Origin: Promethearchaeum syntrophicum
Lineage (GTDB): Archaea; Asgardarchaeota; Lokiarchaeia; Sigyniarchaeales; Promethearchaeaceae
DNA: 32,000 bases
Direction of reading: 5' to 3'
NCBI RefSeq assembly: GCF_008000775.2
Contig: NZ_CP042905.2
Coordinates: 270,001 to 302,000, forward strand
The stretch's first letter is position 1, and each line of letters begins with the position of its first letter. A model generated the notes under the pieces. The model saw only the letters and a program-made list of their open reading frames with translations. It made no database searches and was not told the origin of the DNA. Position numbers and translations under genes: made by a program. This document shows, piece by piece, positions 2,256-23,345 of this stretch.

Positions 2256-4607
2256 ATGGCGTTAACAACATCTGATGAATTACATAAGCAATTAACAGTA
2301 ATATTTGGATTTTCGGGTCAATTAGATATTGAAGTTGGGGAAATTATCGGAATAGGAAAACTTTCTGAGCACGAAACTAAGAAATTGACTCAATCTGTTC
2401 TAAGATTTTTAAATAATTATAATTCTATGCTTAAAGATTATGCAGGTTGTACGCTTTATTCAATTGAATTTGAATTAGAAAATCTAGGAAAACGAAATTT
2501 AGTTAGTTTAATGCCTAAATCAATGTTATTTATTCCCGGGTCGTATAAAGATTGTAATACTTTAATGTTATTACTCGCTCCAGAAATGAGTCTAGTTGAT
2601 TATACTAAATCAAGAGAAGCAATAGACGATTTAGGAAAGCTATATTTTGAAGTAGAAGAAGCAATAGATCGACCTGAACTCGAAAAAGAACAAAGACGAA
2701 AAGTACTAAAAAATTTTGCTAAAAGATTTGCTTTGAAATTGCAAGGGAATGTAATTAAAGGTAAATGGAATCGCAAAATGATCGGTATAACTTCGGGGAT
2801 TAAAGAAGACCTATATTTATCCGTCAATATCCAAAAGGAAGTTAAATGGAAAAATAAAGAAATTATCCCCTTAAAATCAAGTTTTTCTGTTCCTCGCCTT
2901 AATTTGATGAAAAAAGAACAATTTGATTTTATGAAACATTGGTTAAACCAAAGTACATCATTAGTAATTGCAAAAAATACATGTAAATTGACTGCAAATT
3001 TATTACAACTCGCTAATACCGGAACAATTAGTGAAACTCAAAAGCAGATACTAATAGCTTTCTTAAAATCTTTTATAGATTATTCTGAGCAAAATAAAAA
3101 ACTTGTAACATTTGATCAATTCAAAAGTGAAATTGAATCATTTTATACAATATATGAACAATATTTGGAGAATTTTAAAGAAAAATCAACTAACTTTATA
3201 AAAAGTGGAGAGATAAAACCTCTAAATGAGATAAATTCTTTGTATTTGAATATTTTAACTGAAAAGGACACTACATCTGTAAAAGAGAAATGTATAAATA
3301 ATCTAGCCAAAATTACCCATAATCATATATTCACTACAAAATATCGCTATCATTCTCAAGAAAAAGTTCGATCCTCCGAGTTTACAAATCCTATATTAAA
3401 TATTGAACAAAATACGCAATTAGTGTTAAAAAAAATTAAGAATGCAGTACCTTTCTATATTCAACATTATCTTTTTGATAGTTTTTTTAGTAACCTTTTA
3501 GAAATGTTGCAAAAAGAGTTTGATCTAATTAATAATAAATCAATAAAAGCATTAAGTGTAAAATTTTTAGAAAAATACGAAGATTACCTAAAAAATGAAT
3601 TAGAAAAATCATATTCTCAAATTGTTGCTACAAACCAACGAAATATTTATCTGAAATTTAAAGAGATTGCTAAAAAAACTATAGAGCCATTTATTAATTC
3701 AGTAAATATTGAAATTAAAGATTTAGTTGATTTCTGTAATATTATTTTATCGGATAACCTTGAAATGCAACCATATCTTGAACATTTGAAGAAATTTCAG
3801 GATGAAATCGATTTCTTATGGGGTTTTATTTTGAGATCATCTACTTTTCAGCGATTTTTAAAAGAATATCCAGAAGAAGAAATATTTGATCCTGAACACT
3901 TTGCTAACCGATTTATTGATTTTTTACAAAAAAAACGGTTAGGTGGGCTCCAATTAGAATGGAAAAATTATATTTTCCAATGGATTAACACATATAAATA
4001 TGAGTTTCAAACGAAATACACGAAAGATCAAGAAGGAAAAATTATTTGGCCTAAAACTAAAATAATTTCAAGTTTTATCGATTTTATTGGTAAGAAAGTA
4101 GAAGAAGAAACTACAATCCAAGGATTTTTAAATCCATTGAAAAGATATTTGGACAATATTGCAATGTCAAATATAAAAAATAAATTTGTTTTAGAAATTC
4201 TAGAAGCGTATAAATTAAGTTTAGAAATTGTACAGCAATTTCCTGACTATTTAAGGCAAGTTTTTAATAAAGCAATTGAAAATCGTCAAGAAAAATTAAT
4301 GCCACAAACAATTTCCGCCTATATTGGGGCTATACCAGATTTAGATAAAATTTTATCTGAAGAAATTGAAGAAAAATCACAATTTCTTGCTATAAAAAAA
4401 AGCCTTTATGCGTTTATCATTGAAACTGAATTAAAATATTATTCAAAGCTGTTAGCTAAACCAAAGCAGATTATACTTCAAAATTTAGATAATGAATTAT
4501 TCCAAAAGAAGATATTACAACATCGAATAGAATTTGATACATTAGGCGATAAATATATGAAAATGTCCATTTTTTCAAATTTCAAAGATGTTTATCCACG
4601 ATATTAA
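2256..4607 (+). CDS. large hypothetical protein (783 aa): possible N-terminal Roadblock/LC7-like module followed by a long all-helical region
   Basis: An uninterrupted 2.35-kb ORF in an AT-rich genome, with GAGGGAG about 9 nt upstream of the ATG. Residues about 5-135 show an alpha-beta-beta-alpha-beta-beta-alpha pattern reminiscent of Roadblock/MglB (LTVIFGFSGQLDIEVGEIIGIGK...SVLRFLNNYNSMLKDY...LYSIEFELEN...NTLMLLLAPEMSLV). The remainder is K/E/L/I-rich and helical with no catalytic motif seen. Confidence 0.8.
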   Translation: MALTTSDELHKQLTVIFGFSGQLDIEVGEIIGIGKLSEHETKKLTQSVLRFLNNYNSMLKDYAGCTLYSIEFELENLGKRNLVSLMPKSMLFIPGSYKDCNTLMLLLAPEMSLVDYTKSREAIDDLGKLYFEVEEAIDRPELEKEQRRKVLKNFAKRFALKLQGNVIKGKWNRKMIGITSGIKEDLYLSVNIQKEVKWKNKEIIPLKSSFSVPRLNLMKKEQFDFMKHWLNQSTSLVIAKNTCKLTANLLQLANTGTISETQKQILIAFLKSFIDYSEQNKKLVTFDQFKSEIESFYTIYEQYLENFKEKSTNFIKSGEIKPLNEINSLYLNILTEKDTTSVKEKCINNLAKITHNHIFTTKYRYHSQEKVRSSEFTNPILNIEQNTQLVLKKIKNAVPFYIQHYLFDSFFSNLLEMLQKEFDLINNKSIKALSVKFLEKYEDYLKNELEKSYSQIVATNQRNIYLKFKEIAKKTIEPFINSVNIEIKDLVDFCNIILSDNLEMQPYLEHLKKFQDEIDFLWGFILRSSTFQRFLKEYPEEEIFDPEHFANRFIDFLQKKRLGGLQLEWKNYIFQWINTYKYEFQTKYTKDQEGKIIWPKTKIISSFIDFIGKKVEEETTIQGFLNPLKRYLDNIAMSNIKNKFVLEILEAYKLSLEIVQQFPDYLRQVFNKAIENRQEKLMPQTISAYIGAIPDLDKILSEEIEEKSQFLAIKKSLYAFIIETELKYYSKLLAKPKQIILQNLDNELFQKKILQHRIEFDTLGDKYMKMSIFSNFKDVYPRY

Positions 4608-4621
4608 CAAGATGATGACTT

Positions 4622-7066
4622 ATGGGAGAAATAGTAGCCGTTAGGAGAAGAAAAATTGCCGAAGAGGGAATTCAGCGATTTTTTCAAAGCATATATCAAA
4701 TCCTAAATCATTTCAAAAGTAAATATGATAGAGAATTTCTGTATAAAATAACAACAGAAGAAAATACTCTTACTAATCTTATTATTGGTTCAACAACAAT
4801 CCATATTTATCATTTTCTTGGAATAAGAACTAAATCAGATGAAGAAATGGTTTCACGCACTAGAAATATAAAAGCTTTTCAAAATGCTGAAAAAAAAGAA
4901 ATATTCTCAGAACTACTTGATTTAGTCGGGGATTCAATCAATTATGAATTGGAATTCTTTAAATTATCGATAGATTATGAGGAACAAATTCTTAAATCAA
5001 TGGTTTCAGGAGAAGATCTTAACGAACGGTTTACCCTTAAATTAAGTGAACAGATTGAAGATCATATTATTGAATCCTTAAATAAATATCCAATTTCATA
5101 TTGGATTGATCATATTGGAGAATTGACAGGTTATTCAGAAGTTGTAAAAAATCAAATATTGACCGAAACAGCTGGACTCAAAATAATTGGAGCAGATTTA
5201 GAAAGAAATTTGATTGAAGAAGGGCGTAGAGATCAATACCTTGAATTAACGACATTTTCTCAATTAATTAAAAAGGCAAAAAAAGATTTTGAATTTACAT
5301 CTATTCGCGATTTAAAGATAGAAACTTTTCCAATAAAATTGATGACTAATCAAATTATAAAATATGTTATGAATTTATATCCGATTAGTACTCGAGGAAT
5401 ACATCAATATCTAAAAGCCACTGATTTAAAGAAAAAATTATTTGCAGAATTATTGGCAGCAAATAAGAAATCAACTAATTATATGAAAATGGAAGAAAGA
5501 ATCTTAAGTGAAATAAAAACAGAATTAAAAAATCAAGCTAAGTTAGATCCTAATGATTTTGTATATTTCATTCAAAATCTCTTAGAACTAAATTTTGAAG
5601 AAACATTTGCTTTATTATCTCGTTTGGGAATAGATAACGTTGCTTTATTTTGTCATGTGCAAAATTTTGATTTAGAAATGTTCTTTGAAGATATAAAATT
5701 AAATCAACTTTCTAAAATGTCTTTTATGAAAGTTGGGAAAAAGGAAAATGAACTTCAAAAAGTTGAGGATAAATTAAACGAGTTGAAAAATCGCGGGAAA
5801 ATTAAATCCGGGCTTTCAGGACAAGAATTAGTTTTAAATCCTACTCCTGAGGGGGATAAAATTATTGAATTAGCATGTCAAATGGCTAATGTAGATTGTG
5901 AAAAATATAAACAATTGTGCAAAAAGAAGCAAATTATTATTGACATAATACAGAAAAAATACCCATTAAAGGGACCATATTCTTGTTATTCTATGGTATA
6001 TGACCTTCCAGAGATTTATCAAAATTTAAGTCGACATGTTTATTACAAATACATCGAAAAGGTTTGTAGACATATTGCAAGGGTTTTAGAGACATATATA
6101 AAAATTAAAGAAGATAAAGGATTATTTTTGCAAGGATTAAGAAGGATTTTTAATTCTACTGAAGAAGAAGAATGGGTTGTAGTAAATATTGAAGAACTGA
6201 TTATTCAGAGAATAATGGATCGACAGCAAGAATTATCTATAATTTTTAATGCTGAAACAGATGCATATCTTGTGAATTCTTTCATTCTAGCTAGATTATT
6301 AGATATCGATCTAAAATCTGCATTGAACATGTTAAAAAATGAACCAAGCTCAGTTTATAGAAATTCGGCTGAATTAACGCTTCCAAGAGAACTAATTTCC
6401 CCAAGATCTTATATTATTGCATATGATATATTAACCAGATTCAAAGAACATCAAGAATTATTATTAATGAAGAAGGAGCAGGTTTTCGAATCTAATAAGG
6501 AAAAAAAGTTACAATATGAAAAAGATGTTCAAAAAGCTCGAACTTTAACAACATTGAATTGGATAGACAAGAAAATTACAAGTGGTCTAATTTCTATTTC
6601 TGCAACAACAACAAATCCAACTAAGTTATATTGGAACGAGAAAGATCAAAAAATTACCTCTGAAAATTTAAAACTTCACAGTGAACTTGAAAATATTAAA
6701 ATTTGTTCTGTATGTGGAAAAGATTTAACTAATTCTCCTTGTTCAGATCATCCTGGAAGCGAAAAGGAGGCAAATCCTGTTGATTTATTTGCTAGCTTCT
6801 ATTCTTTTGCTTTAAGTAGAATAAAATTACATTGGAGTAAAACTAAATTACCAACTTATGAAGCGATTTATAATGAAGTTTTAAATTGGGTATTAGAAAT
6901 AACAGAGAAACGTTTAGGGAAAAAAATCAATCCAGAAGAAAGTAAAAATCTCCTTGAAGGCGAACGTCTAGAAGTTTCGAATAAAATAGCTAGTTCCATT
7001 GGAATTATTCTAGATAAAGCACTTTATAAGAAATTTAAGGCAAGTATGAAAACTAGGAAAAATTGA
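4622..7066 (+). CDS. large hypothetical protein (814 aa), mostly helical, with a single CX2C-X8-CX2H zinc-knuckle-like motif near the C-terminus
   Basis: A 2.4-kb ORF starting 14 nt after the previous stop, so a likely operon partner. The motif CSVCGKDLTNSPCSDH is encoded at 6704-6751. I saw no P-loop or other enzymatic signature. Confidence 0.8.
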   Translation: MGEIVAVRRRKIAEEGIQRFFQSIYQILNHFKSKYDREFLYKITTEENTLTNLIIGSTTIHIYHFLGIRTKSDEEMVSRTRNIKAFQNAEKKEIFSELLDLVGDSINYELEFFKLSIDYEEQILKSMVSGEDLNERFTLKLSEQIEDHIIESLNKYPISYWIDHIGELTGYSEVVKNQILTETAGLKIIGADLERNLIEEGRRDQYLELTTFSQLIKKAKKDFEFTSIRDLKIETFPIKLMTNQIIKYVMNLYPISTRGIHQYLKATDLKKKLFAELLAANKKSTNYMKMEERILSEIKTELKNQAKLDPNDFVYFIQNLLELNFEETFALLSRLGIDNVALFCHVQNFDLEMFFEDIKLNQLSKMSFMKVGKKENELQKVEDKLNELKNRGKIKSGLSGQELVLNPTPEGDKIIELACQMANVDCEKYKQLCKKKQIIIDIIQKKYPLKGPYSCYSMVYDLPEIYQNLSRHVYYKYIEKVCRHIARVLETYIKIKEDKGLFLQGLRRIFNSTEEEEWVVVNIEELIIQRIMDRQQELSIIFNAETDAYLVNSFILARLLDIDLKSALNMLKNEPSSVYRNSAELTLPRELISPRSYIIAYDILTRFKEHQELLLMKKEQVFESNKEKKLQYEKDVQKARTLTTLNWIDKKITSGLISISATTTNPTKLYWNEKDQKITSENLKLHSELENIKICSVCGKDLTNSPCSDHPGSEKEANPVDLFASFYSFALSRIKLHWSKTKLPTYEAIYNEVLNWVLEITEKRLGKKINPEESKNLLEGERLEVSNKIASSIGIILDKALYKKFKASMKTRKN

Positions 7067-7130: not shown

Positions 7131-7391
7131 ATGGATCTAAATCTCTCTAAAATTAATAAAAAATTTTTGATTAAAGGAGCTATTTACGCACTAATGTTAA
7201 TGGTTGCACCAATTTTGGGTATTTTAATGCGTAGCGGTGGTTCTAATCAATATCTAATCTTTGGGTTTGTAGCGGCTATCAATATTATTGCAGTAATCGG
7301 TGTTTTTAAAATGTTGAAAGATGATTTATTTGAGGAAGAAAAAGAAGAAATCCATGATAAGAAAAAAAAAATAACAGAAACAACTAAATAG
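7131..7391 (+). CDS. small membrane protein (86 aa, two predicted TM helices, acidic/basic C-terminal tail)
   Basis: Hydrophobic stretches AIYALMLMVAPILGILM and YLIFGFVAAINIIAVIGVF are followed by EEEKEEIHDKKKK. A TATAAAATTTTTA element lies about 30 nt upstream of the ATG. Confidence 0.55.
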   Translation: MDLNLSKINKKFLIKGAIYALMLMVAPILGILMRSGGSNQYLIFGFVAAINIIAVIGVFKMLKDDLFEEEKEEIHDKKKKITETTK

Positions 7392-8247
7392 TTCTTAAAA
7401 TTTCCCTCCAAGGTAAATTGGGATTTCCGTATTTTTTAATTTCTTCATTAATTTCCTTTAAAACTTCAGGACTATAAATCCATGCGTCATCTTTATTAAA
7501 AGATAAACATTTTACATTTAAACCACGAATATTAAGTATTCTTCTTAAAATTAAAGCATAAAAAGCAATTTGTGGTAGAGATCTGAGGAAATAACCTTCA
7601 GGTTTGTAATCTGCTATGATCAAATTTTCCCCCTTTTTATCGTAAAGTAATAAATCTATATGTCCTGTTATTGACTTAGAATAAGAAAAATCATAATCAT
7701 TTTTTCCAATATTCATGTAATCTGTTAATTTTTTTTGTTTCCTTAACCATATTGGCGTTTCTATTGATAAAGCATTCCCAAGTTTTAATAAAATTGCCGT
7801 TAAGACAGAATCATGAGATGGTTTATAATAAGAATCTGGATCTTTTTCAAAATCTTCAAAACTTTCATTTACAATATCTAACAAATTATGGACCCATTTG
7901 TAATCCCCAATTTTAGAAGTAGGAATTGAATTTATTCGATTTATAGAACCTGTTTCTAATAATTTTTCCGATATTATTTTGTGAGCACCGCGGTTTAACT
8001 TGGTAATTTTAAAATTTGAACAACGTGTGATTTTTGAATCATTAAATAAATCAAGTGCGATTTGTTTTTTTAGAATTAAATCAAATAGACCATTTATTTT
8101 AGTCTGAATTGGTTTGGACATGAGCGAAATCACGTTTTGACGCTTTGCTAATTTAAATTCATATTTGATTCCAGAATGAAAAAATCTTTGAATTGATATC
8201 GTGTCTGTATTCTTATTTTTCAAATAGTTTTCACCAAATATCTCCAT
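7384..8247 (-). CDS. PD-(D/E)xK nuclease, Cas4/RecB-like core without an Fe-S cysteine set (paralog 1, 287 aa)
   Basis: Ordered motifs are SIETPIW (E), GHIDLLLYD (D), IIADYKPE (D-x-K) and LPQIAFYAL (QxxxY). This is the canonical RecB/Cas4-type arrangement. Only two Cys are present, so no 4-Cys cluster. The N-terminal ~150 aa is an unknown domain shared with the neighbour. Confidence 0.7.
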   Translation of the reverse strand: MEIFGENYLKNKNTDTISIQRFFHSGIKYEFKLAKRQNVISLMSKPIQTKINGLFDLILKKQIALDLFNDSKITRCSNFKITKLNRGAHKIISEKLLETGSINRINSIPTSKIGDYKWVHNLLDIVNESFEDFEKDPDSYYKPSHDSVLTAILLKLGNALSIETPIWLRKQKKLTDYMNIGKNDYDFSYSKSITGHIDLLLYDKKGENLIIADYKPEGYFLRSLPQIAFYALILRRILNIRGLNVKCLSFNKDDAWIYSPEVLKEINEEIKKYGNPNLPWREILRTI

Positions 8248-9029
8248 ATCAGATTAGGATTTCCGAATCTTTCTATGTAATAGGGGATTTGTTTCTTAAT
8301 AATTTCTGGATCATAAATCCAAAGTTTATCTTTACTAAAAGAAATACACTTAATCTTATCCAATTTCAACATTTTTTTTATAAATAACCCATAGGTGGCC
8401 ACTTGAGGCAAGCTTCGTAAAAAACCATTTTCGGGTTTGTAATCTGCTACGATTATGCTATTATCCAATTCATCATACAAGAGAAGATCAATATGTCCTG
8501 TGAATAATTCTCCGGTGATACATGAAAATTCCGTTCTTTGAATTAATTTAGTCCTAAATGATTCCAAAGTGGAGCTCCATATTGGGATTTCTATACTTAA
8601 GCTATTTTCATTTAATTCTAAGATCTTTTGAAGGATAGGACCATGTTTCGGATTTTTTTTCATCTGATAATAAAAAATATCATACCAAATTCTTGTCATT
8701 TTTACCAAATTAACAATACTCTTGGAAACGTCTTTGGGGGTATTTTCATCATTAACAAGAGTTACATAGTTATTTTTTATGAGCTCCAAAGAAATTTTTT
8801 TTAAACCATCTTTATCTAAATTCTTAAGTTTAAAACTTGAGCATCGTAAAATTTCTTTACTATTGAATAATTTTTCGGGGTATACATTCGAGCAAACTAA
8901 ATTATAATACTTAATTAATTTGTTTCCAAAATTTTGGGCAATGTTTGGCAAATGATGGCGATTTTCAACCCATTTAAACTCATATTCAACCCCGCCTTGG
9001 TAAAACTTTCGAGTTTCTATCTCAACCAA
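8220..9029 (-). CDS. PD-(D/E)xK nuclease, Cas4/RecB-like core (paralog 2, 269 aa), inferred TTG start
   Basis: It has the same motif set: SIEIPIW, GHIDLLLYD, IVADYKPE, LPQVATYGL, and the C-terminal FGNPNLIWR (versus YGNPNLPWR in paralog 1). The frame opens only 2 codons upstream of the TTG at 9029-9027, and the N-terminal conserved block (TRKFYQGGVEYEF versus IQRFFHSGIKYEF) requires a start there. Confidence 0.65.
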   Translation of the reverse strand: MVEIETRKFYQGGVEYEFKWVENRHHLPNIAQNFGNKLIKYYNLVCSNVYPEKLFNSKEILRCSSFKLKNLDKDGLKKISLELIKNNYVTLVNDENTPKDVSKSIVNLVKMTRIWYDIFYYQMKKNPKHGPILQKILELNENSLSIEIPIWSSTLESFRTKLIQRTEFSCITGELFTGHIDLLLYDELDNSIIVADYKPENGFLRSLPQVATYGLFIKKMLKLDKIKCISFSKDKLWIYDPEIIKKQIPYYIERFGNPNLIWRYLVKTI

Positions 9030-9626: not shown

Positions 9627-9875
9627 TTATTCACATGCTGCAATATCTGCGGCAGTTACTCTCTTTCTCTTGTCACCTTTGACAAGTTTAACAGCTTCTT
9701 TCGTAACTTCTTTAGCTGCTTTTGTTAATTCTTCGATCAATAAAATTACTGCATCTTCAGCTACTAATCCTGCGCCTTCATTCTTCATTAATCGTCGAAT
9801 TGGTGCTTTAGCAATGTAGGCGGATCGGTTTTTGGTTGCTGCTTTCTTTTTTGGTGCTGCTTTTTTCTTAGCCAT
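9627..9875 (-). CDS. archaeal histone (HMf-type histone fold) with a lysine-rich N-terminal tail
   Basis: IAKAPIRRLMKNEGAGLVAEDAVILLIEELTKAAKEVTKEAVKLVKGDKRKRVTAADIAA aligns by eye to the HMfA/B histone fold (loop-1 R, RKT-like motif). It is preceded by MAKKKAAPKKKAATKNRSAY. The track start at 9884 is GTG, so ATG at 9875 is the more likely start. Confidence 0.85.
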   Translation of the reverse strand: MAKKKAAPKKKAATKNRSAYIAKAPIRRLMKNEGAGLVAEDAVILLIEELTKAAKEVTKEAVKLVKGDKRKRVTAADIAACE

Positions 9876-9892
9876 ATTTTTCACATCATTAA

Positions 9893-10424: not shown

Positions 10425-11528
10425 CTAGATAATTAAATCTTTATTCATTATTTGATACCCAGATGATCTAACTATTGCAGATTTCAAGAATTGAAAACCA
10501 ATATTAACGGTAGAACCATCTCCACCAATATGAATTACATAAGGGACTTCTTTCTTGATTCCTTTATTGTACATGATTCTATAAGCTGTAGAAATTGCAT
10601 CCGCTACTGTTGCTCCAGATTCAAATAATTGATGCATCCATGAAGCTTGCCATGAGGTTACATCATCCTTACTTGTAGCTACTTCCACACAACATGTATT
10701 ATTCACATAAATACAATTCTCTTTGGCTACTAGGTAAGCTGCGTGCCCCAATTGATTCAGAAGCATTCCAGCACCACAACCGGGACAAAGTCCATATCCT
10801 GGATTTATATGAAATTGGGGAGGAATTTCTCTATGAATCACGGAATATCGTATTTTACAATCATCTTCCCCAAATGAAGCGAGTAGGTTATTTAAATTTA
10901 TATTTCGGGCTTTAACTTGACCAAAATTTTCATCAATATTCTTTTCTAAAAATTCAGGCTTCAACAAGTGGCGGAATTTACCTTGAGTTTTCAGGTATTC
11001 CAACATTTTCTCTTCATCGGTTGTAATATATTCCTTTTCAGATTCAGATTTCTTCATTCCAGGAACTGAAGTATAGTAATATTTTGGAACTCCATCTTTA
11101 ACTTTAATTGTGATTAAAGGCCAATATCCAGATTCTGTTGCTAGTTTTGAAATTTTGATAGTGTCTTTTGACGGATGACGCCAACCTCTAGGACATGGGC
11201 TATAAACTTGAATAAATCCTCCTCCAGGAGTTTTCATTGCATCCATCACTTTTCCCATGAGATCAGTAGGATAAGCCACATTTGCAGTAGCAAAGAAAGC
11301 ACTTTTATGACCAAGAAATGTAAAACCTAAGATATAATCTTCTTTAATTCCGATTTTCCCCTTAATTTTTTGTCCTCCTGGTCCTGTTGTAGTGCTGGCT
11401 CCAAATGGTGTGGTTCCACTTTCTTGAATACCAGTATTCATAAAAGCTTCGTTATCATATCCAATATATAATACTGTATTTCTTTCAGATCGTGCCAAAA
11501 TATCTGCCATTTTTATTATTTTTGTCAT
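10425..11528 (-). CDS. 2-oxoacid:ferredoxin oxidoreductase beta (TPP-binding) subunit, with the canonical C-terminal half preceding the canonical N-terminal half (apparent circular permutation)
   Basis: The protein contains all PorB-type signatures: YDNEAFMNTGIQESGTTP, VYSPCPRGW, WPL, GKFRHLL, then LCPGCGAG, NNTCCVEV, HIGGDGSTVNIGFQ. The likely start is ATG at 11528 (MTKIIKM...), 8 nt after GGAGATGAT and just after the alpha-subunit stop. The track start at 11564 overlaps the alpha gene. Confidence 0.85.
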   Translation of the reverse strand: MTKIIKMADILARSERNTVLYIGYDNEAFMNTGIQESGTTPFGASTTTGPGGQKIKGKIGIKEDYILGFTFLGHKSAFFATANVAYPTDLMGKVMDAMKTPGGGFIQVYSPCPRGWRHPSKDTIKISKLATESGYWPLITIKVKDGVPKYYYTSVPGMKKSESEKEYITTDEEKMLEYLKTQGKFRHLLKPEFLEKNIDENFGQVKARNINLNNLLASFGEDDCKIRYSVIHREIPPQFHINPGYGLCPGCGAGMLLNQLGHAAYLVAKENCIYVNNTCCVEVATSKDDVTSWQASWMHQLFESGATVADAISTAYRIMYNKGIKKEVPYVIHIGGDGSTVNIGFQFLKSAIVRSSGYQIMNKDLII

Positions 11529-11545
11529 GATATCATCTCCTTTAA

Positions 11546-12772
11546 TTAAAAACGAACCTCCCACATCTTATCTTTGGATTGCCGAACTCCAAGGTAATCA
11601 TACAATTTTCCTCTATTATCCGTTATAGGTTTCATCTTTTTCGCCGCATATTCAATTTCATCTTTGGTAACATCTCGCCCACCTAATCCGACGATAAGAG
11701 ATCTAAGAACTACATTTAACCCAAAAAGCGCGCTTGCAACTGATTGGCCAACTGGAGGTAGAATTCCACTAAGATCATCATCTTTTTCAAGAATAATAAT
11801 TTTTTCAATTTTATTCTCTTCAATGATTTTTCTGAGTTTTTCAGCAGGAAACGGTCTCCATGTTCTTAACTTAATTAATCCTACATCTTTATTGTGTTCC
11901 ATCCAAGTTAGAATATTCCCACACATCGATCCCATTGTTAGAAACACTGTTTTACTAGAGCATTCTAAATTATATGTTTCAATCGAATGATAAGATCTCC
12001 CTGTCATTTTTTCAAATTCTTTGAAAGCATTATCAATTATGGGCAATACTTTATTCTTTTCTAATTCTAAAGCTAATCTTCCTTCTCCAAAATAATCAGG
12101 TGTAACAATTCCACCCCAAGTCCCTGTTTTTTCAGTATTAATATGGTGGCGTGGTTTTTTGGGAGTATATTTCAGGACATCCTCATCTGGAACTGCGAAG
12201 AATTTCTGCGCACTATGTGAAATTATAAACCCATCGTGAACAAATTGAGTTGGGAATAATGAATCTTCAGAAATTTTGGATGCAATTATTGAAGCATCAT
12301 ATGTTTCTTGAACATTTTCAGAAACAATCGTATTCCATCCCATCCCAGATAGTAATGTAAATTCCCATGAATTCCATATTGAAAGATTTGGAGAATTAAA
12401 TGCACGGGCTGATATCATCATTGTTAGCGGAACTCGCCATCCAGGGGCCATAGGTAAACATTCAGCCATTAACAATAACCCTTGAGATGCAGTAGCTATA
12501 AAAGTTCGCGCTCCAGCAGCACATGCAGCAGTACTAAACGCGCATGCCGCTAATTCAGATTCTACATTAACAAATGCCGCTTTCAACTTTCCATGGTTGA
12601 CAACATCAGATAAACCTTCCACAGATTGAGTTTGAGGCGTAATTGGAAATGCACAAATCACATCGGGATCAGTTTGACTAACGCCACCCGCAACAGCATA
12701 ATTACCTGTCATAGTTAATTCGACAGGTTCCTTGATTTCCTTGAAAAAAGGATTCATTGGTTGTACAGACAT
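11546..12772 (-). CDS. 2-oxoacid:ferredoxin oxidoreductase alpha subunit
   Basis: The N-terminus TGNYAVAGGVSQTDPDVICAFPITPQTQ, then ESELAA...GARTFIATASQGLLLM, and the C-terminal GLGGRD are typical of PorA/VorA. GGTGAT lies 8 nt upstream of the ATG. Confidence 0.9.
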   Translation of the reverse strand: MSVQPMNPFFKEIKEPVELTMTGNYAVAGGVSQTDPDVICAFPITPQTQSVEGLSDVVNHGKLKAAFVNVESELAACAFSTAACAAGARTFIATASQGLLLMAECLPMAPGWRVPLTMMISARAFNSPNLSIWNSWEFTLLSGMGWNTIVSENVQETYDASIIASKISEDSLFPTQFVHDGFIISHSAQKFFAVPDEDVLKYTPKKPRHHINTEKTGTWGGIVTPDYFGEGRLALELEKNKVLPIIDNAFKEFEKMTGRSYHSIETYNLECSSKTVFLTMGSMCGNILTWMEHNKDVGLIKLRTWRPFPAEKLRKIIEENKIEKIIILEKDDDLSGILPPVGQSVASALFGLNVVLRSLIVGLGGRDVTKDEIEYAAKKMKPITDNRGKLYDYLGVRQSKDKMWEVRF

Positions 12773-12785
12773 TTTTCATATCACC

Positions 12786-13775
12786 TTAGCATTTCATGAC
12801 CATAGTCAAAGCTTTATGGACCTCTCCCGTTTCTTTATCTTTCTTTCCTGGACAAACATAAACACAATTTTCGCACCCTTTACAATGAAATGCGTCAACA
12901 CCGACTATTTGCCATTTATTATCTTTAAATTCTCGTTGAATACATAAATCAGGGCAAATAAAAACACAACTGCCGCACTGTATACAATATTCTGGGTGAA
13001 AAGATGCATAACTGACTCCCCAAGATCCTGTATTTACCCGAGTTGAGCCTCCGTCTATGGCATCAGTATACCAAACTCCTGCTTTATCTAATTCTGCAGC
13101 TCCTAATTTACCTAAGCCAATGTGGCTCCATTCTTTCTTGTAATCTTTTTCAAAACTAACTTTTATTTTATCATCACAAGGAAAAATTATAGTTGCATCT
13201 GGAACTGTTTTTATTGCATCCATGTTCTTTTGTGCAATTTTTGGATTGAATTGTTCACCTATTGCAGAAATCAATTCTTCTAAAGCAAAAATTTGTGGTG
13301 CGACCTTGACTAAAGCTCCTAAAATTAAGGTATTCGTAATATTTCGCCCTAAATATTCTAACGCAATATTTGTAGCATCAATTAGTGCAACATTTATTGC
13401 TGGAGGATTATTCTTATCAATAATTTCTCGTATTTCCTCATAGGGTTTACATGTGTTTACAATCAAGTAACCCCCTGGAACCATTCCAGCAGTACAGTCT
13501 ACATCTTCAAGTAAAGTATCATCTAAGACACAACTATATTGGGGGGAGTAAACTTGCTCATTTGTTCGTACTTTATTATAGTCTTTTGACATTCGTGCAA
13601 AAGAGGCAACAGGAGATCCCATTCTTTCTGCACCAAAAGTGGGCATACAAGTAGCTGGACCATCAAATGCCATAGAACAGAGTTGGGCAGCAGTAACCGC
13701 TCCTTGACCCCCACGTCCGTGAAATCTCACAAGATATTTGGGTATATTTTCTTTATTTTCAGTCATATTTTTCAT
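12786..13775 (-). CDS. 2-oxoacid:ferredoxin oxidoreductase gamma-delta fusion subunit (gamma domain plus 2x[4Fe-4S] ferredoxin-like delta domain)
   Basis: RFHGRGGQGAVTAAQ is the gamma signature. The C-terminal CIQCGSCVFICP and CKGCENCVYVCP are two CX2CX2CX3CP ferredoxin motifs. The track start at 13796 is TTG. In-frame ATGs lie at 13775 and 13766, so the start is uncertain within about 30 nt. Confidence 0.88.
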   Translation of the reverse strand: MKNMTENKENIPKYLVRFHGRGGQGAVTAAQLCSMAFDGPATCMPTFGAERMGSPVASFARMSKDYNKVRTNEQVYSPQYSCVLDDTLLEDVDCTAGMVPGGYLIVNTCKPYEEIREIIDKNNPPAINVALIDATNIALEYLGRNITNTLILGALVKVAPQIFALEELISAIGEQFNPKIAQKNMDAIKTVPDATIIFPCDDKIKVSFEKDYKKEWSHIGLGKLGAAELDKAGVWYTDAIDGGSTRVNTGSWGVSYASFHPEYCIQCGSCVFICPDLCIQREFKDNKWQIVGVDAFHCKGCENCVYVCPGKKDKETGEVHKALTMVMKC

Positions 13776-14117
13776 CCCATTTAAATGGAAAAACAATAAC
13801 TAGACTTCGCTTTGTCATAATAAATGATGTCTTATAGATTTTCCTTTATCAAATTATTTAGGATAAAATCATAGCAATTACATATTTAATTGAATACAAT
13901 AGATAATTAAATCGGGTTCTAATTTTTTGGAGAACCAATCAAATGATTTCAAATATGGAATACATTTTCTAATCTTAGCTAACTTTTAGATACTAATTTA
14001 CCATTGACATAATATTCGAAGTTTAAAAAAATAGATATTTAAAAATTTTATAGAGTTATAGTATTTTTCTTGTAAAACCCTAACCATAACCTAAATGACC
14101 ATTATCTAGATGATTTA

Positions 14118-15996: not shown

Positions 15997-16563
15997 GTGT
16001 CTTTATATAATGAAAAATACCCTATAAAAATTGTAATCGCCGGTCAAGCAGGAACAGGAAAATCTACATTAATTTCTACTAAAAAAACGGGATCTTTTAA
16101 TATTGCTTCAAAAATGACTATAGGGGTAGATTTTGTAATTTTAGAAATAAACCATAATGAAAAAACGTATCAATTTTTAGTCTATGATTTAGGTGGACAG
16201 AAAAGATTTCAATTTCTTCATGATTCCTATATCAAAGGTGCTAAAGCGAGTATAATATTGTATGATTTGACTCGAATCATTACATTCAATTCAATACCAA
16301 AATGGATCGCACTTTTAATGGCAGAAAATCCTCAAATTCCAATTTTAATATGCGGATCAAAAAAAGACCTTATTCAATATGAAGATATCAAGAATTTTGA
16401 GAACAAATGGATTGATTTTGTATCCAAAATTCCAAAAAATTGTAATATAATCGGTCATATTTTTACTTCCTCGAAAACTATGGAAGGAATTGATTCAATT
16501 TTTTATACTTTAGCTGATTATTTAATGTTATCTATAGAGTCCTACATTTCTAAAAAGATATAA
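15997..16563 (+). CDS. Ras-superfamily small GTPase, Rab-like
   Basis: G1 is GQAGTGKST, switch I is TIGVDF (Rab-type), and G3 is DLGGQ. G4 is GSKKD (a variant of NKxD) and G5 is SSK. YDLTRIITFNSIPKWI resembles the Ras/Rab interswitch region. The start is GTG at 15997, and no in-frame ATG lies nearby. Confidence 0.85.
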   Translation: MSLYNEKYPIKIVIAGQAGTGKSTLISTKKTGSFNIASKMTIGVDFVILEINHNEKTYQFLVYDLGGQKRFQFLHDSYIKGAKASIILYDLTRIITFNSIPKWIALLMAENPQIPILICGSKKDLIQYEDIKNFENKWIDFVSKIPKNCNIIGHIFTSSKTMEGIDSIFYTLADYLMLSIESYISKKI

Positions 16564-16596: not shown

Positions 16597-18123
16597 ATGC
16601 CATTAGTTGAATTAGTTCCAAATTTTTCAGAAGGTCGTAGACAAGATGTAATCGATAAAATTCTTGCTGCGATGAAAGAAGGTAGTAATGCAAAGATCTT
16701 AGATTCAAGAGCAGATCCAGACCATAATCGATTAGTTGTTACATTAGTTGGGGAACCCGAAGAAGTTTTTAATGCAGGGTTTGCAGGAATTAAAACTGCT
16801 GGCGAATTAATTGACATGGATAATCATTCGGGTGAGCATCCGCGTATCGGAGCCACAGATGTAGTTCCATTTGTACCAATAAGTGGAATTACTCTCGAAG
16901 AATGCAACAATTTAGCAAACAGATTAGCAGAAAAGGTTTCAAAGGAATTAAAAATTCCTACTTATCTTTATGAAGCTTCAGCTAAACGACCAGACCGAGT
17001 AAATCTTGCTAATATTCGAAAAGGACAATATGAAGGATTAAAAGAAGCGATAAAGACAGATCCTGAAAGAAAACCTGATTTTGGCCCTTCAATTCTTCCA
17101 AAAGCAGGAGCGACAGTAATTGGCGCTCGTGAATTTTTAATTGCATATAATATCTATCTCAATACAACAAACGTTGAAATAGCAAAAACTATTGGGCGTA
17201 ATATTCGACATAAAAACGGAGGATTTCATTATGTGAAATCGATGGGATTTGAAACCAAACCGTTCGTTCAAGTTTCCATGAATCTTACGAATTATAAAGG
17301 AACCCCTATGCACATGGTTGTCGATACAGTTAGAAATGAAGCTGCCCGATATGGGGTGTCAATTATTGAGACCGAGGTTTATGGAATGATTCCTGTTGAT
17401 GCTTTACTAGAGTCATCAGAACATTATTTGCAATTAAATGATAAATGGGATCGCTCTCAAATTATTGAGAAGAAGATGGAAAGCAAAGGATCGGAAAAAT
17501 CTTTGGAAAATCTATCGGTTAATGAATTTCTTAGTGAATTAGCTTCAGATAGTCCTGCACCAGGAGGAGGTTCTGCATCTTGTGTCGCCGGTGCAATGGG
17601 TGCTGGATTAGCTGCAATGGTTTCAAGATTAACTCTTGGGAAGAAAGGATATGAAGAGTTAGAGCCATTCTTCAGTGAGAAAATAAGCCAATTGGATAGT
17701 CATTATAAGACATTAACAAAATTAATTGATAAAGACGCAAACGCATTTAATGGCGTAATTGCAGCTTTTAAACTTCCTAAAGATACAGAGGATGCAAAAG
17801 CAAAACGTTCTGCAAAAATACAAGAAGAGTACAAAAATGCAGCTTTAATTCCAATGGAAACAGTGAGAACTTGTAAATCTGTATTAGATATTATCTTGGA
17901 AATTGGAACCAAAGGAAATAAGAACGCAATGTCTGATATTGCAGTTGCTACCCTAAATACTTTAACAGGATTAAAAGGTGCAGCTTTTAATGTAGAAATA
18001 AACCTACCCTCAATTAAAGATCAAACATTCAATGCAGAAATGAAGAAAGAACTTGCAGTAATTATGAAAGGTTTAGACGATAAAGTATTAAAATTGATTA
18101 GTGAAGCAAAATCGAAATTTTAA
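16597..18123 (+). CDS. ftcD: bifunctional glutamate formiminotransferase / formimino-THF cyclodeaminase (FTCD-type fusion)
   Basis: The N-terminus LVELVPNFSEGRR is the hallmark of formiminotransferase. The C-terminal SPAPGGGSASCVAGAMGAGLAAMV is the cyclodeaminase/cyclohydrolase (FTCD_C) signature. Confidence 0.85.
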   Translation: MPLVELVPNFSEGRRQDVIDKILAAMKEGSNAKILDSRADPDHNRLVVTLVGEPEEVFNAGFAGIKTAGELIDMDNHSGEHPRIGATDVVPFVPISGITLEECNNLANRLAEKVSKELKIPTYLYEASAKRPDRVNLANIRKGQYEGLKEAIKTDPERKPDFGPSILPKAGATVIGAREFLIAYNIYLNTTNVEIAKTIGRNIRHKNGGFHYVKSMGFETKPFVQVSMNLTNYKGTPMHMVVDTVRNEAARYGVSIIETEVYGMIPVDALLESSEHYLQLNDKWDRSQIIEKKMESKGSEKSLENLSVNEFLSELASDSPAPGGGSASCVAGAMGAGLAAMVSRLTLGKKGYEELEPFFSEKISQLDSHYKTLTKLIDKDANAFNGVIAAFKLPKDTEDAKAKRSAKIQEEYKNAALIPMETVRTCKSVLDIILEIGTKGNKNAMSDIAVATLNTLTGLKGAAFNVEINLPSIKDQTFNAEMKKELAVIMKGLDDKVLKLISEAKSKF

Positions 18124-21191: not shown

Positions 21192-22244
21192 CTATTCTTC
21201 ATCATTTGAAGAATCATCAATTGGAGAGTCATTATTTGAAGTATCGTTAATCCCAAGTTGGTTGATCATTTGCTTCTTTAATGTTGAAAGATCTCTTGAA
21301 AGTCCAAAAGTATCTGAAAAATTCTCAGTTGTCATCAATTCATAAGATCTTCCCTTTTTCATTGCACTAATAAACCCTCTATCCAATAAAAACTTAACAT
21401 GTTCATATGCTCCCGATCCCCGAATTTTTATTAATTTGGATTTTAGAATCGGTTGTTTTAAAGCAATAATTGTTAGAGTTTTCAAATGCCTGTCTGGTAT
21501 AAGCCCTCCAGTAGCAAATTTTTTAACATTAGGGGTATATTCTGGTTTAATTTGAAGGCTGAATTTATCTTGAATCTGGACAATCTCTAATGCAGTTGCA
21601 CGCATCAAATAATCCAACATTAACTCTTCTAAATTCTTTTCTAAATCTTTTTTCTTAATTTCTGTTTTTATATTAAGTTCTTCTATCGAGATAGGACGAC
21701 CCGCTACAAAAAGAGCACCCTCAATAATATTCTTCATTCGAGAGTTTTCATCAATTTCTTCTGAAACTAACTCTTCCGTTGATAATTCATCACTAACTGC
21801 GGGGGTTTCTAGTGCTTCTGGATTATCTTCATCTATAAATTCTTCGATAGATTCATGAGTTATCTCCTCTCCAGGAATATTATTATCTAATTCTTCATAA
21901 TTTTCTGGAGCTTCTTCTCGTTCTTCTTCCTTCTCTCCCTCTTCTTCTATTAATTCCTTTTCAGCAGGTAAACTCTCAATTTCTTTATCAATTTCTTCTA
22001 AATCAGCTAAAATTTCTTGTTCAATTACATCTTGATCTTTTTCAATATTTTCTTCTTTTGGTTCCGGTTCTTCAATCCTATCTATTTGATGTTCTTCAAT
22101 TGGGGCTTCATCTTCTTCTTCTGCTTCTTCATCTTGATCTAAATCGTCTGGTTCTTGCTGATCACTATTTTCTTCTTCAATTTCATCTAATTCTGGGATT
22201 TCATCATTAATTTCTTTGTTTAAATCATGTTCTTCTTCAAGCAT
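21192..22244 (-). CDS. scpB: ScpB (condensin accessory subunit) with a ~168-aa polyacidic N-terminal extension
   Basis: The ScpB core is IEGALFVAGRPISIEEL...LKTLTIIALKQPILKSKLIKIRG...LLDRGFI...GRSYELMTTENFSDTFGL. AAGGTGA lies 6 nt upstream of the ATG at 22244. The extension is about 50% D/E. Confidence 0.85.
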   Translation of the reverse strand: MLEEEHDLNKEINDEIPELDEIEEENSDQQEPDDLDQDEEAEEEDEAPIEEHQIDRIEEPEPKEENIEKDQDVIEQEILADLEEIDKEIESLPAEKELIEEEGEKEEEREEAPENYEELDNNIPGEEITHESIEEFIDEDNPEALETPAVSDELSTEELVSEEIDENSRMKNIIEGALFVAGRPISIEELNIKTEIKKKDLEKNLEELMLDYLMRATALEIVQIQDKFSLQIKPEYTPNVKKFATGGLIPDRHLKTLTIIALKQPILKSKLIKIRGSGAYEHVKFLLDRGFISAMKKGRSYELMTTENFSDTFGLSRDLSTLKKQMINQLGINDTSNNDSPIDDSSNDEE

Positions 22245-22269
22245 TATATTTCACCTTATTAATATTATA

Positions 22270-23328
22270 TTAACTTAAATTGATGCTAGTTTTATCGACA
22301 AGAGTTACCTCAATTGGGCTCCGCATCGTTCTTTGAGCCATTGTTACTTTATTTAAAGATGCTAAAAATAACAACTCTTCAAAAAGTTGAATGTAATTTA
22401 CCTTTTTCTTCAGTATTGCTTGATCTTCTTGATAAATCATTTTTTTTAGTAATGCAACGGAAAAAGTTTGGCCATCTTTATTCATGCGAATGATTTCCTT
22501 TATTTTTTGATGCGTTTTTTGAAGTCGTTCTTCAATAGTTAATTCGCTCCCAGTAATATGCTTCAAAATTTCAGCAGGTAGTTTTCCTTTTCCCCGTATC
22601 TTAATTTGTTTTTCTCGTTTAGCAAGACTGCGTTCACGCCTAATTCTTAATTTTTCGCGTTTTTGCATAGTTTCAATAATTGCTCTCCTCATTGCACCAA
22701 ACAATTCACTCGAGGTTGCAATTTTTCGACTTTCTCGTAAAGGCTGTGCTATGGCTCTAGGAATTTCTCTTCGTAAACGCGCGCGTGCCTCTTCTCTTTG
22801 AATATGTTCCTCTTCTGCTATCACACTTGTGATTTTCTTATGATAAAATTTCGCAGATGAATAGATCGCTAGCCCAGATATACGAAAATCGATTAATTCT
22901 TCAGTTAACATCTTGTCAATAAATTCTTCTATTAATTTGCTTATATCGAATTTCGCCAGATCTACATTACTCGCCAGATCAGGATCCAATAAAGATCGCC
23001 ATGGTTCCTCAATCCACCATTTTCCTGATTTTTCAAGCACTTCATTTTCATTAATCTCTGAATTATCCTCAATTTCTGCCCCGACTGTAATGACTTCCTT
23101 AATAACAGGTTCTACTTCTTCTTTTTTGACTTTTTTCTTTGATTTTTTCTTATCTACTTTTGGAGATTCTTTCTTTTGATCTGATTTTGGCTTCTCAATT
23201 TTACCAGTTAAACTTGTTTGCTTTAATTTTGTTGTCTTTGCTTTTCTAGTCTTTTTTTTACTAGATTTCTTTGAGGTTGTAGGTTTTTTAGTTGTTTTTT
23301 TTTTCTTTTTTGTTGTTTTCTTTGCCAT
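22270..23328 (-). CDS. scpA: ScpA (kleisin) with a polybasic lysine-rich N-terminal extension
   Basis: The archaeal ScpA-like N-terminal block is LDPDLASNVDLAKFDISKLIEEFIDKM...ISGLAIYSSAKFYHKK. The C-terminal winged-helix-like block is FEELLFLASLNKVTMAQ. The gene sits between smc and scpB, with AGGAGAGG upstream of the ATG. The first ~75 aa are K/T/S-rich (MAKKTTKKKKKTTKKPTTSKKSSKKK...). Confidence 0.75.
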   Translation of the reverse strand: MAKKTTKKKKKTTKKPTTSKKSSKKKTRKAKTTKLKQTSLTGKIEKPKSDQKKESPKVDKKKSKKKVKKEEVEPVIKEVITVGAEIEDNSEINENEVLEKSGKWWIEEPWRSLLDPDLASNVDLAKFDISKLIEEFIDKMLTEELIDFRISGLAIYSSAKFYHKKITSVIAEEEHIQREEARARLRREIPRAIAQPLRESRKIATSSELFGAMRRAIIETMQKREKLRIRRERSLAKREKQIKIRGKGKLPAEILKHITGSELTIEERLQKTHQKIKEIIRMNKDGQTFSVALLKKMIYQEDQAILKKKVNYIQLFEELLFLASLNKVTMAQRTMRSPIEVTLVDKTSINLS

Positions 23329-23345
23329 CCTTCAATTCCTCTCCT

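Follow-up and report, generated by a model that had tools for sequence, protein, structure and literature searches.

The closest described relatives of the protein considered here are the canonical PorB- and VorB-type beta subunits of 2-oxoacid:ferredoxin oxidoreductases (OFORs), represented by 9BT4 chain C, 5C4I chain C and domain VI of pyruvate:ferredoxin oxidoreductase (PFOR; 1B0P and 6CIN). In the thiamine diphosphate (ThDP) superfamily, whole domains are known to occur in permuted order, running PP-PYR-x in transketolase and E1 enzymes versus PYR-x-PP in decarboxylases and AHAS, and the GDG-X~30-N motif has been called 'strictly maintained' across the family (bioRxiv 10.1101/2021.03.21.436335). 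Here we describe a gene in a 32,000-nt stretch of the genome of the Asgard archaeon Ca. Prometheoarchaeum syntrophicum MK-D1 (contig NZ_CP042905.2, positions 270,001–302,000; hereafter the window) whose product, DSAG12_00808, is a circular permutant of a PorB/VorB-type beta subunit. Both of its halves are homologous to the canonical proteins, at ~35–45% identity, and they stand in swapped order along the chain.

A first-pass annotation of the window had proposed such a permutation, and every comparison that we made bears it out. First, a profile hidden Markov model (HMM) that we built from 50 canonical-order betas (311 positions) matches the protein twice: positions 120–296 align with amino acids (aa) 16–209 (162 bits) and positions 7–121 with aa 233–355 (86 bits), the two matches converging on one canonical Arg. 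This is the exchange of halves for which the first-pass annotation had suggested checking by profile search. Second, phmmer aligns aa 236–354 with residues 5–115, and aa 18–169 with residues 118–261, of M. acetivorans PorB (9bt4_C), a Protein Data Bank match with E = 7.5e-43; the Moorella oxalate oxidoreductase beta (5c4i_C) gives swapped matches in the same way.

Third, the NCBIfam models for PorB, VorB and oxalate oxidoreductase beta each match in two stretches, all far under their cutoffs. The best PorB stretch pairs protein residues 25–217 (numbered in a 379-aa open reading frame (ORF), see below) with profile positions 114–296 of 300, and the PorB total of 220 bits against a cutoff of 405 comes from stretches that are out of order, with no full-length colinear match to the family. 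The Pfam TPP_enzyme_C model is matched in its back half only (profile 71–150 against protein 27–119 in the 379-aa numbering), at 22.3 bits for a cutoff of 21.9. We attribute these low curated-family scores to the swapping of the halves, each of which scores strongly alone.

Fourth, the protein becomes colinear only with a doubled canonical beta. In local alignment, aa 21–358 run without rearrangement along a tandem dimer of the spliced canonical homologue P0123, with a score of 520 versus 353 for a single copy, and doubled P0124 and P0125 references gave similar results. At the junction in this alignment, the reference C-terminus directly meets the N-terminus, and the query is ~7 residues longer there. 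With E-values from 1e-20 to 1e-52, the swapped-order matches lie far beyond chance. The half with the Cys motif and the ThDP/C-terminal half each show significant homology to OFOR betas (PorB/VorB, COG1013/arCOG01601), and swapped homologous segments that are colinear with a doubled reference are what defines a natural circular permutant. A contiguous GDG-X(25–30)-N motif is absent: GDG is found at residues 336–338 and DNE at residues 25–27, so that the motif is divided between the chain ends.

The protein is 100% identical to QEE14985.1 / WP_147661915.1, the MK-D1 entry for DSAG12_00808. An ORF finder lists it at 10425–11564 on the minus strand, with a GTG start and 379 aa; an in-frame internal ATG at 11528 yields 367 aa. 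We take this ATG to be the correct start because a Shine-Dalgarno-like GGAGAT precedes it and because orthologues begin MTKIIK or MTTIIK. The reading frame is unbroken and is flanked by the alpha subunit gene and a histone gene. The features of the gene, with conservation judged from a family alignment of 30 permuted members (55–91% identity), are as follows.

10425–11528, minus strand: permuted OFOR beta subunit coding sequence, 367 aa plus stop, recognised by swapped-order homology and identical to DSAG12_00808
11529–11545, minus strand: alpha–beta spacer of 17 nt, TTAAAGGAGATGATATC, with Shine-Dalgarno-like GGAGAT just 5′ of the ATG
11484–11528, minus strand: N-terminal extension, aa 1–15 (MTKIIKMADILARSE), upstream of the canonical homology
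10902–11483, minus strand: old canonical C-half, aa 16–209 (profile 120–296), delimited by HMM, phmmer and family alignment
11448–11456, minus strand: codons D25-N26-E27, second ThDP/Mg half-motif (reverse complement gataacgaa)
11193–11195, minus strand: codon C112, predicted fourth proximal [4Fe-4S] ligand, in the PCP motif, invariant in the 30-member alignment
10833–10901, minus strand: junction or linker, aa 210–232, connecting what was the C-terminal helix with what was the N-terminus
10464–10832, minus strand: old canonical N-half, aa 233–355 (profile 7–121), delimited by HMM, phmmer and family alignment
10515–10523, minus strand: codons G336-D337-G338, first ThDP/Mg half-motif (reverse complement ggagatggt), invariant in the 30 members
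10425–10463, minus strand: C-terminal tail, aa 356–367, plus stop (SGYQIMNKDLII before the stop), variable across the family

Read from its N-terminus, the chain opens with an extension modelled as a strand (aa 3–6) and a helix (aa 7–11) at a predicted local distance difference test score (pLDDT) of ~93, in which I5 and D9 are conserved in at least 90% of members and L11 is invariant. The old C-half follows, with the strand leading into the DNEAFMNTGIQ Mg/ThDP half-motif, then SPCPRGW with C112, the WPL hairpin and the GKFRHL tail helix; N26 of the half-motif aligns with Thr991 of D. africanus PFOR, which we take to be a Mg ligand. In a Loki-type subgroup (MK-D1, L. ossiferum and Harpocratesius), the hairpin is followed by an additional insert of ~13 aa. 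The junction is ordered in the model, comprising the end of helix 194–219 and strand 220–229 at pLDDT ~90, and is conserved, with Y228 invariant and F219 and G220 present in at least 90% of members. Beyond it, the old N-half carries the cluster cysteines C248, C251 and C280 (CxxC and TCC motifs), the GGDG triad and the IGFQFLKSAIVR helix. The three residues of the GDG triad lie 29–31 aa from the C-terminus. The peptides quoted in the first-pass annotation are all present, as is its placing of the two half-motifs near opposite termini. The break itself falls at canonical position ~120, where the helix after GDG turns into the strand before DNE; such a helix-to-strand turn is expected at the end of the motif distant from the cofactor.

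The permuted form is a trait of an Asgard lineage, common there and not a one-off. In a database of 5.8 billion proteins we obtained 919 matches; the best 120 of these are ~360 aa long and colinear with the MK-D1 protein over their full length, at 54–91% identity, and their source names include Promethearchaeota/Lokiarchaeota, Helarchaeota, Thorarchaeota, Hermodarchaeota and Ca. Lokiarchaeum ossiferum. Among GTDB species representatives, 25 loci (L001–L025) hold the permuted gene, and wherever the upstream flank suffices it is preceded by gamma-delta and alpha genes in that order, the operon partners expected of an OFOR beta. The best relative, Ca. Harpocratesius repetitus, shares 81% identity in beta, 83% in alpha and 76% in gamma-delta. 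From L026 on, the loci have canonical order and include Hadarchaeota, many bacteria and a Heimdallarchaeota metagenome-assembled genome (MAG; L053). The first-pass annotation had called for a search of related genomes for the same architecture; at least 120 full-length colinear homologues exist, among them those of the single-contig genomes of MK-D1 and L. ossiferum and of the Harpocratesius MAG.

A second search, of 1.84 billion representatives clustered at 50% identity, gave 1326 matches. Among the best 150, the only ones colinear with the query are the representatives P0121 and P0122 and a few short fragments, 118 have the canonical order of halves (~33–51% identity), and the remainder match in one half and are mostly truncated-looking fragments. 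The permuted form is therefore one tight clade among these 150, consistent with a single origin.

In one of the 25 loci, L025 (6001–7099, MAG YT6_002), the permuted beta appears as two tblastn segments, aa 3–39 and aa 34–365, offset by 14 nt, which points to a frameshift or small indel close to DNE/NTG, whether a sequencing error or a pseudogene.

The halves may have been exchanged by tandem duplication with trimming or by fission with fusion. We favour duplication, with moderate confidence, as the simplest event that can befall a gene at the end of an operon; tandem duplication of such a gene is also a simpler and more often documented route than fission and refusion. The permutation would have arisen a single time, in an ancestor that gave rise to the Loki, Hel, Thor and Hermod lineages, most plausibly by in-frame tandem duplication of the terminal operon gene and subsequent loss of the outer halves. 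The first-pass annotation had gone further, reading decayed copies of the linking helix and strand at both termini as the footprint of duplication and trimming. These copies did not survive closer comparison. Profiles of the family's N-terminal (aa 1–45) and C-terminal (aa 326–367) ends, compared with hhalign, share only an unrelated 7-residue match at E = 0.4, and when each end is aligned with a canonical GDG..NTG profile, the extension past the breakpoint has a posterior confidence of about zero. The N-terminus of an AlphaFold 2 (AF2) model contains a short strand and a 5-residue helix, and no copy of the 12-residue helix. We rejected a duplicate remnant at the termini as unproven on these three grounds, and likewise set aside the C-terminal tail (aa 356–367) as a remnant of the following strand and DNE, which has no statistical support. 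Nor were beta–beta tandems or three-segment intermediates present among 270 retrieved homologues. The two profile results and the missing intermediates count against duplication, and the route, like its footprint, stands unproven.

A gene split at the helix-to-strand turn, whose pieces later changed places and were fused with the C-half in front of the N-half, would have needed neither tandem duplication nor trimming. Such a history sits easily with the lack of a significant terminal remnant at either end, and it predicts the native C-to-N junction just as well, since the tight joining of native end to native end fits both routes equally. Several entries that contain the C-half alone have an initial Met close to the breakpoint (P0171, P0191 and P0265 among them). 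Most such entries, however, begin at a non-Met residue or inside the GDG region, for which reason they look like contig-end fragments, and paired N-half and C-half genes were found in 0 of 80 loci. We therefore regard fission and refusion as unlikely, and retain duplication as the preferred route.

Three canonical PorB homologues, P0123 (852 aa), P0129 (859 aa) and P0144 (474 aa), carry inserts of 150–550 aa near the breakpoint that interrupt the ThDP motif. In the sequences of two of them, the insert is intein-like and lies at YV|CYDNE (P0123) or is mini-intein-like and lies at DNEAYMN|TG (P0144). We considered and rejected a link between inteins and the permutation: the inteins of P0123 and P0144 sit a few residues downstream of the breakpoint and are therefore unrelated to it. 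The nearest canonical relative was uninformative as a clue to the ancestor: the top score among canonical betas is that of the P0123 extein, a member of an Altiarchaeota PorB family and not of an Asgard one. Over the canonical matches, rank by the score of one half shows no positive correlation with rank by the score of the other (Spearman −0.35), although P0123–P0126 rank high for both.

Two of the permuted loci, from Promethearchaeota MAGs, have a second, diverged copy of the 3′-terminal ~42 codons of the permuted beta, at ~80% nucleotide identity (L007, 2106–2231; L023, 2963–3082). The copies lie 750–820 nt downstream of the real 3′ end; that of L007 has an in-frame stop and that of L023 is open. 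Between the real 3′ end and its copy, L007 has an inserted 204-aa ORF (1443–2057) with no Pfam match. This looks like an element inserted in the 3′ end of the beta gene, supplying or displacing a replacement end.

The beta gene is the last of three on the minus strand, and its partners and their spacing are listed here.

11546–12772, minus strand: alpha subunit coding sequence, 408 aa, DSAG12_00809, with POR_N and PFOR_II domains; best NCBIfam model PorA_Arch, 281 bits for a cutoff of 550
12773–12785, minus strand: gamma-delta/alpha spacer of 13 nt, GGTGATATGAAAA, with Shine-Dalgarno-like GGTGAT
12786–13796, minus strand: fused gamma-delta coding sequence, DSAG12_00810, with a POR domain and a 2x[4Fe-4S] ferredoxin domain; it aligns colinearly to the model for the delta subunit of oxalate oxidoreductase

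The listed gamma-delta ORF begins at TTG, and homologues align only from ~aa 8–23; the true start is for that reason probably an internal Met (MKNMTENK...). The three genes are close-packed, with spacers of 13 and 17 nt that each contain a Shine-Dalgarno-like site, and do not overlap. Co-transcription is likely; the translational coupling claimed in the first-pass annotation is no more than plausible. A sigma-70 promoter and terminator scan of the operon gave counts equal to the shuffled expectation, and such a scan has little meaning in archaeal DNA.

Imachi et al. 2020 (PMC7015854) list DSAG12_00808, DSAG12_00809 and DSAG12_00810 as the beta, alpha and delta-gamma subunits of the MK-D1 pyruvate:ferredoxin oxidoreductase in their Supplementary Table 4, with culture transcript levels of 286, 372 and 314 reads per kilobase per million mapped reads, respectively. 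In the same study, 2-oxoacid oxidation by way of ferredoxin oxidoreductases is central to MK-D1 catabolism and to the scenario proposed for eukaryogenesis.

Conservation within the permuted family follows the cofactors. All four cluster cysteines (C112, C248, C251 and C280) are invariant across the 30 members and align with the cluster cysteines of PorB, as predicted [4Fe-4S] ligands. The GDG triad (336–338) is invariant, as are I343, G344, Q346–K349, A351 and R354 of the post-GDG helix and, in the Mg/ThDP loop, Y24, N26–S37 and T40/P41, a set that includes N26-E27 and N31-T32-G33. These ThDP/Mg and cluster residues line up with their counterparts in solved PorB and PFOR structures. Against Harpocratesius, the ratio of nonsynonymous to synonymous substitution rates (dN/dS) is 0.10 for beta and 0.07 for alpha, both rough values with dS near saturation. 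The AF2 model, computed from the family alignment, has a predicted template modelling (TM) score of 0.86 and a mean pLDDT of 78; the chain ends beside the break are confident, and low confidence is confined to the cofactor and interface loops (aa 28–61, 184–190 and 283–290). The top Foldseek matches of the model are PorB 9bt4_C, oxalate oxidoreductase beta and PFOR.

The chain runs from the strand into DNE/NTG through the old C-half, across a short ordered junction to the old N-terminus with its Cys motif, and on to GDG and its helix. Folded, it is predicted to rebuild an ordinary PP-domain fold, in which the ThDP/Mg site would be formed by residues ~25 aa in from the N-terminus together with others ~30 aa short of the C-terminus, and the new termini would sit at the helix-to-strand turn, expected to be distant from the cofactor. 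The beta subunit would be a ThDP-binding PP domain that also bears the proximal [4Fe-4S] cluster. By analogy with its relatives, the complex may bind ThDP, Mg and three clusters and oxidise pyruvate, its annotated substrate from homology, or another 2-oxoacid: the 2-oxoacid would be decarboxylated on ThDP, electrons would reach ferredoxin through the cluster of beta and the two clusters of delta, and acyl-CoA would be released.

Several observations pull the other way. The ThDP loop (aa 28–61) has a pLDDT below 50, and the Foldseek TM scores reach only 0.38–0.46, a partial match by a sequential aligner; a low score of this kind is expected when a sequential aligner meets a permuted chain, and we infer the PP-domain fold from the sequence together with this partial match. 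The alpha subunit shares only 30–38% identity with its counterparts in the canonical operons that we retrieved, so the operon represents a divergent clade and its pyruvate specificity is a homology-based label (KEGG K00170; Imachi Supplementary Table 4), which leaves pyruvate as the substrate uncertain. All curated NCBIfam equivalog cutoffs are missed. The functional assignment of the permuted beta comes from homology, together with transcription; the protein is probably functional.

The low scores could instead mark a degenerate, non-catalytic beta-like subunit, either a pseudo-enzyme or a scaffold without ThDP binding, retained for another role. Every NCBIfam beta model does fall far under its curated cutoff (220 versus 405 bits for PorB), the partial TPP_enzyme_C match barely reaches threshold, and the NCBI name is 'hypothetical'. 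But the scores are low as a result of the swapped order and the halves individually score strongly, all cofactor ligands that can be checked are invariant, the dN/dS of 0.10 is close to that of alpha, and the gene always lies beside alpha and gamma-delta, with a transcript level that matches theirs. We consider a degenerate subunit very improbable. The opinion of the first-pass annotation that the enzyme is probably functional is in keeping with the invariant ligands, purifying selection, operon partners and transcription. Taken as one account, a permuted PorB-type beta of a three-gene OFOR, with its fold rebuilt, doing normal POR-type work and arising once, likely by duplication, is the explanation in which we place high confidence.

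That the architecture is an artefact of assembly or gene calling, for example from contigs joined in error or a sequence rotated wrongly, which the first-pass annotation had wanted excluded, is already refuted and has next to no chance of being correct, as the frame runs uninterrupted between the alpha and histone genes and the same architecture is found in cultured MK-D1 (4.32 Mb contig), in Lokiarchaeum ossiferum (6.27 and 6.04 Mb contigs), in a Harpocratesius MAG that consists of one contig (4.36 Mb) and in over 100 other, independent metagenome assemblies (NCBI, JGI, ENA and Logan). This recurrence excludes misassembly without recourse to reads, and it reproduces the permutation in independent genomes under purifying selection, as expected of a genuine permutant.

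Elsewhere in the window, an archaeal histone with a Lys-rich N-terminal tail is encoded directly downstream of the beta gene (9627–9884, minus strand). Beyond it are two overlapping, adjacent paralogous ORFs of 287 and 269 aa (7384–8247 and 8220–9029, both minus strand), which share the pattern GHIDLLLYD...ADYKPE...LRSLPQ(I/V)A.Y and one of which has a weak PD-(D/E)XK nuclease match, and two large tandem ORFs of 783 and 814 aa (2256–4607 and 4622–7066, both plus strand) with no Pfam match at E ≤ 0.001. On the other side of the operon are genes for a Ras-family small GTPase (15997–16563, plus strand) and for formiminotransferase-cyclodeaminase (16597–18123, plus strand), which is DSAG12_00815 of Imachi's histidine-degradation pathway, and a series comprising an SMC gene, an unassigned 352-aa ORF and an ScpB gene (21192–27827, minus strand).

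Circular permutation is itself an established mechanism, and its occurrence in an OFOR beta appears new to the literature. We found no description of a permuted OFOR beta or PP domain in the literature searched, outside which most subscription journals lie. In agreement with the first-pass annotation, which knew of none, the form is nowhere annotated as a permuted subfamily: its label at NCBI is 'hypothetical protein', UniRef gives the L. ossiferum orthologue a generic TPP-domain name, and Prokka, KEGG and JGI call it an ordinary beta. With a beta that is atypical and 'hypothetical' at NCBI, PFOR may be missed or mis-scored in automated reconstructions from Asgard MAGs.

If correct, this would be the first natural intradomain permutation of the ThDP PP domain. 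For ThDP enzymology, the GDG-X~30-N signature by which these enzymes are recognised would have been cut in mid-motif and put together again from the two ends of the chain, in an enzyme that is both conserved and expressed, which makes the permuted beta a test case for PP-domain folding, cofactor insertion and engineering. The free termini at the helix/strand turn, or the new junction, may have altered cofactor loading or subunit assembly. For phylogeny, the permutation could mark an Asgard subclade and help to delimit such groups, being a rare change to the genome that happened a single time, and given that the one Heimdall representative retrieved is canonical. It seems to us somewhat probable that the whole clade (Loki, Hel, Thor and Hermod, with both cultured genera seen) runs its main pyruvate or 2-oxoacid OFOR with a motif split between the termini, as a possible clade marker and with possible effects on cofactor loading or assembly.

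Set beside canonical PorB and VorB, the permuted beta has in common the four cluster cysteines, GDG, DNE..NTG, PCP-GW, WPL, G(K/R)F(R/K)HL and its operon partners, and the gamma-delta fusion of MK-D1 resembles its oxalate oxidoreductase counterpart. It differs in that the halves are swapped at ~120, the native termini are joined by a conserved and ordered junction, new extensions of ~15 aa and ~12 aa have been added at the N- and C-terminal ends, respectively, and all curated family cutoffs are failed. As in the domain-order permutants of the ThDP superfamily and in the shuffling of OFOR subunits and domains, the order of the chain is rearranged in a way that would leave the geometry of the active site intact; those permutants, however, move whole domains and keep the motif contiguous, whereas the MK-D1 beta is broken inside the PP domain and inside the motif. 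Split-gene ThDP enzymes likewise show that chain breaks are tolerated and that the pieces reassemble; in the split transketolase of Carboxydothermus the break is reportedly between the PP and PYR domains, giving two polypeptides, and the permuted beta differs in being one re-fused chain. Natural intradomain permutants are otherwise known among the cpGTPases of the YlqF/YawG type, the DNA methyltransferases with permuted motifs, transaldolase and the swaposins, in which two homologous segments have likewise changed places, align with a doubled reference and are conserved in a clade. These represent the same type of event as the MK-D1 beta, in a different fold and with a different cofactor.

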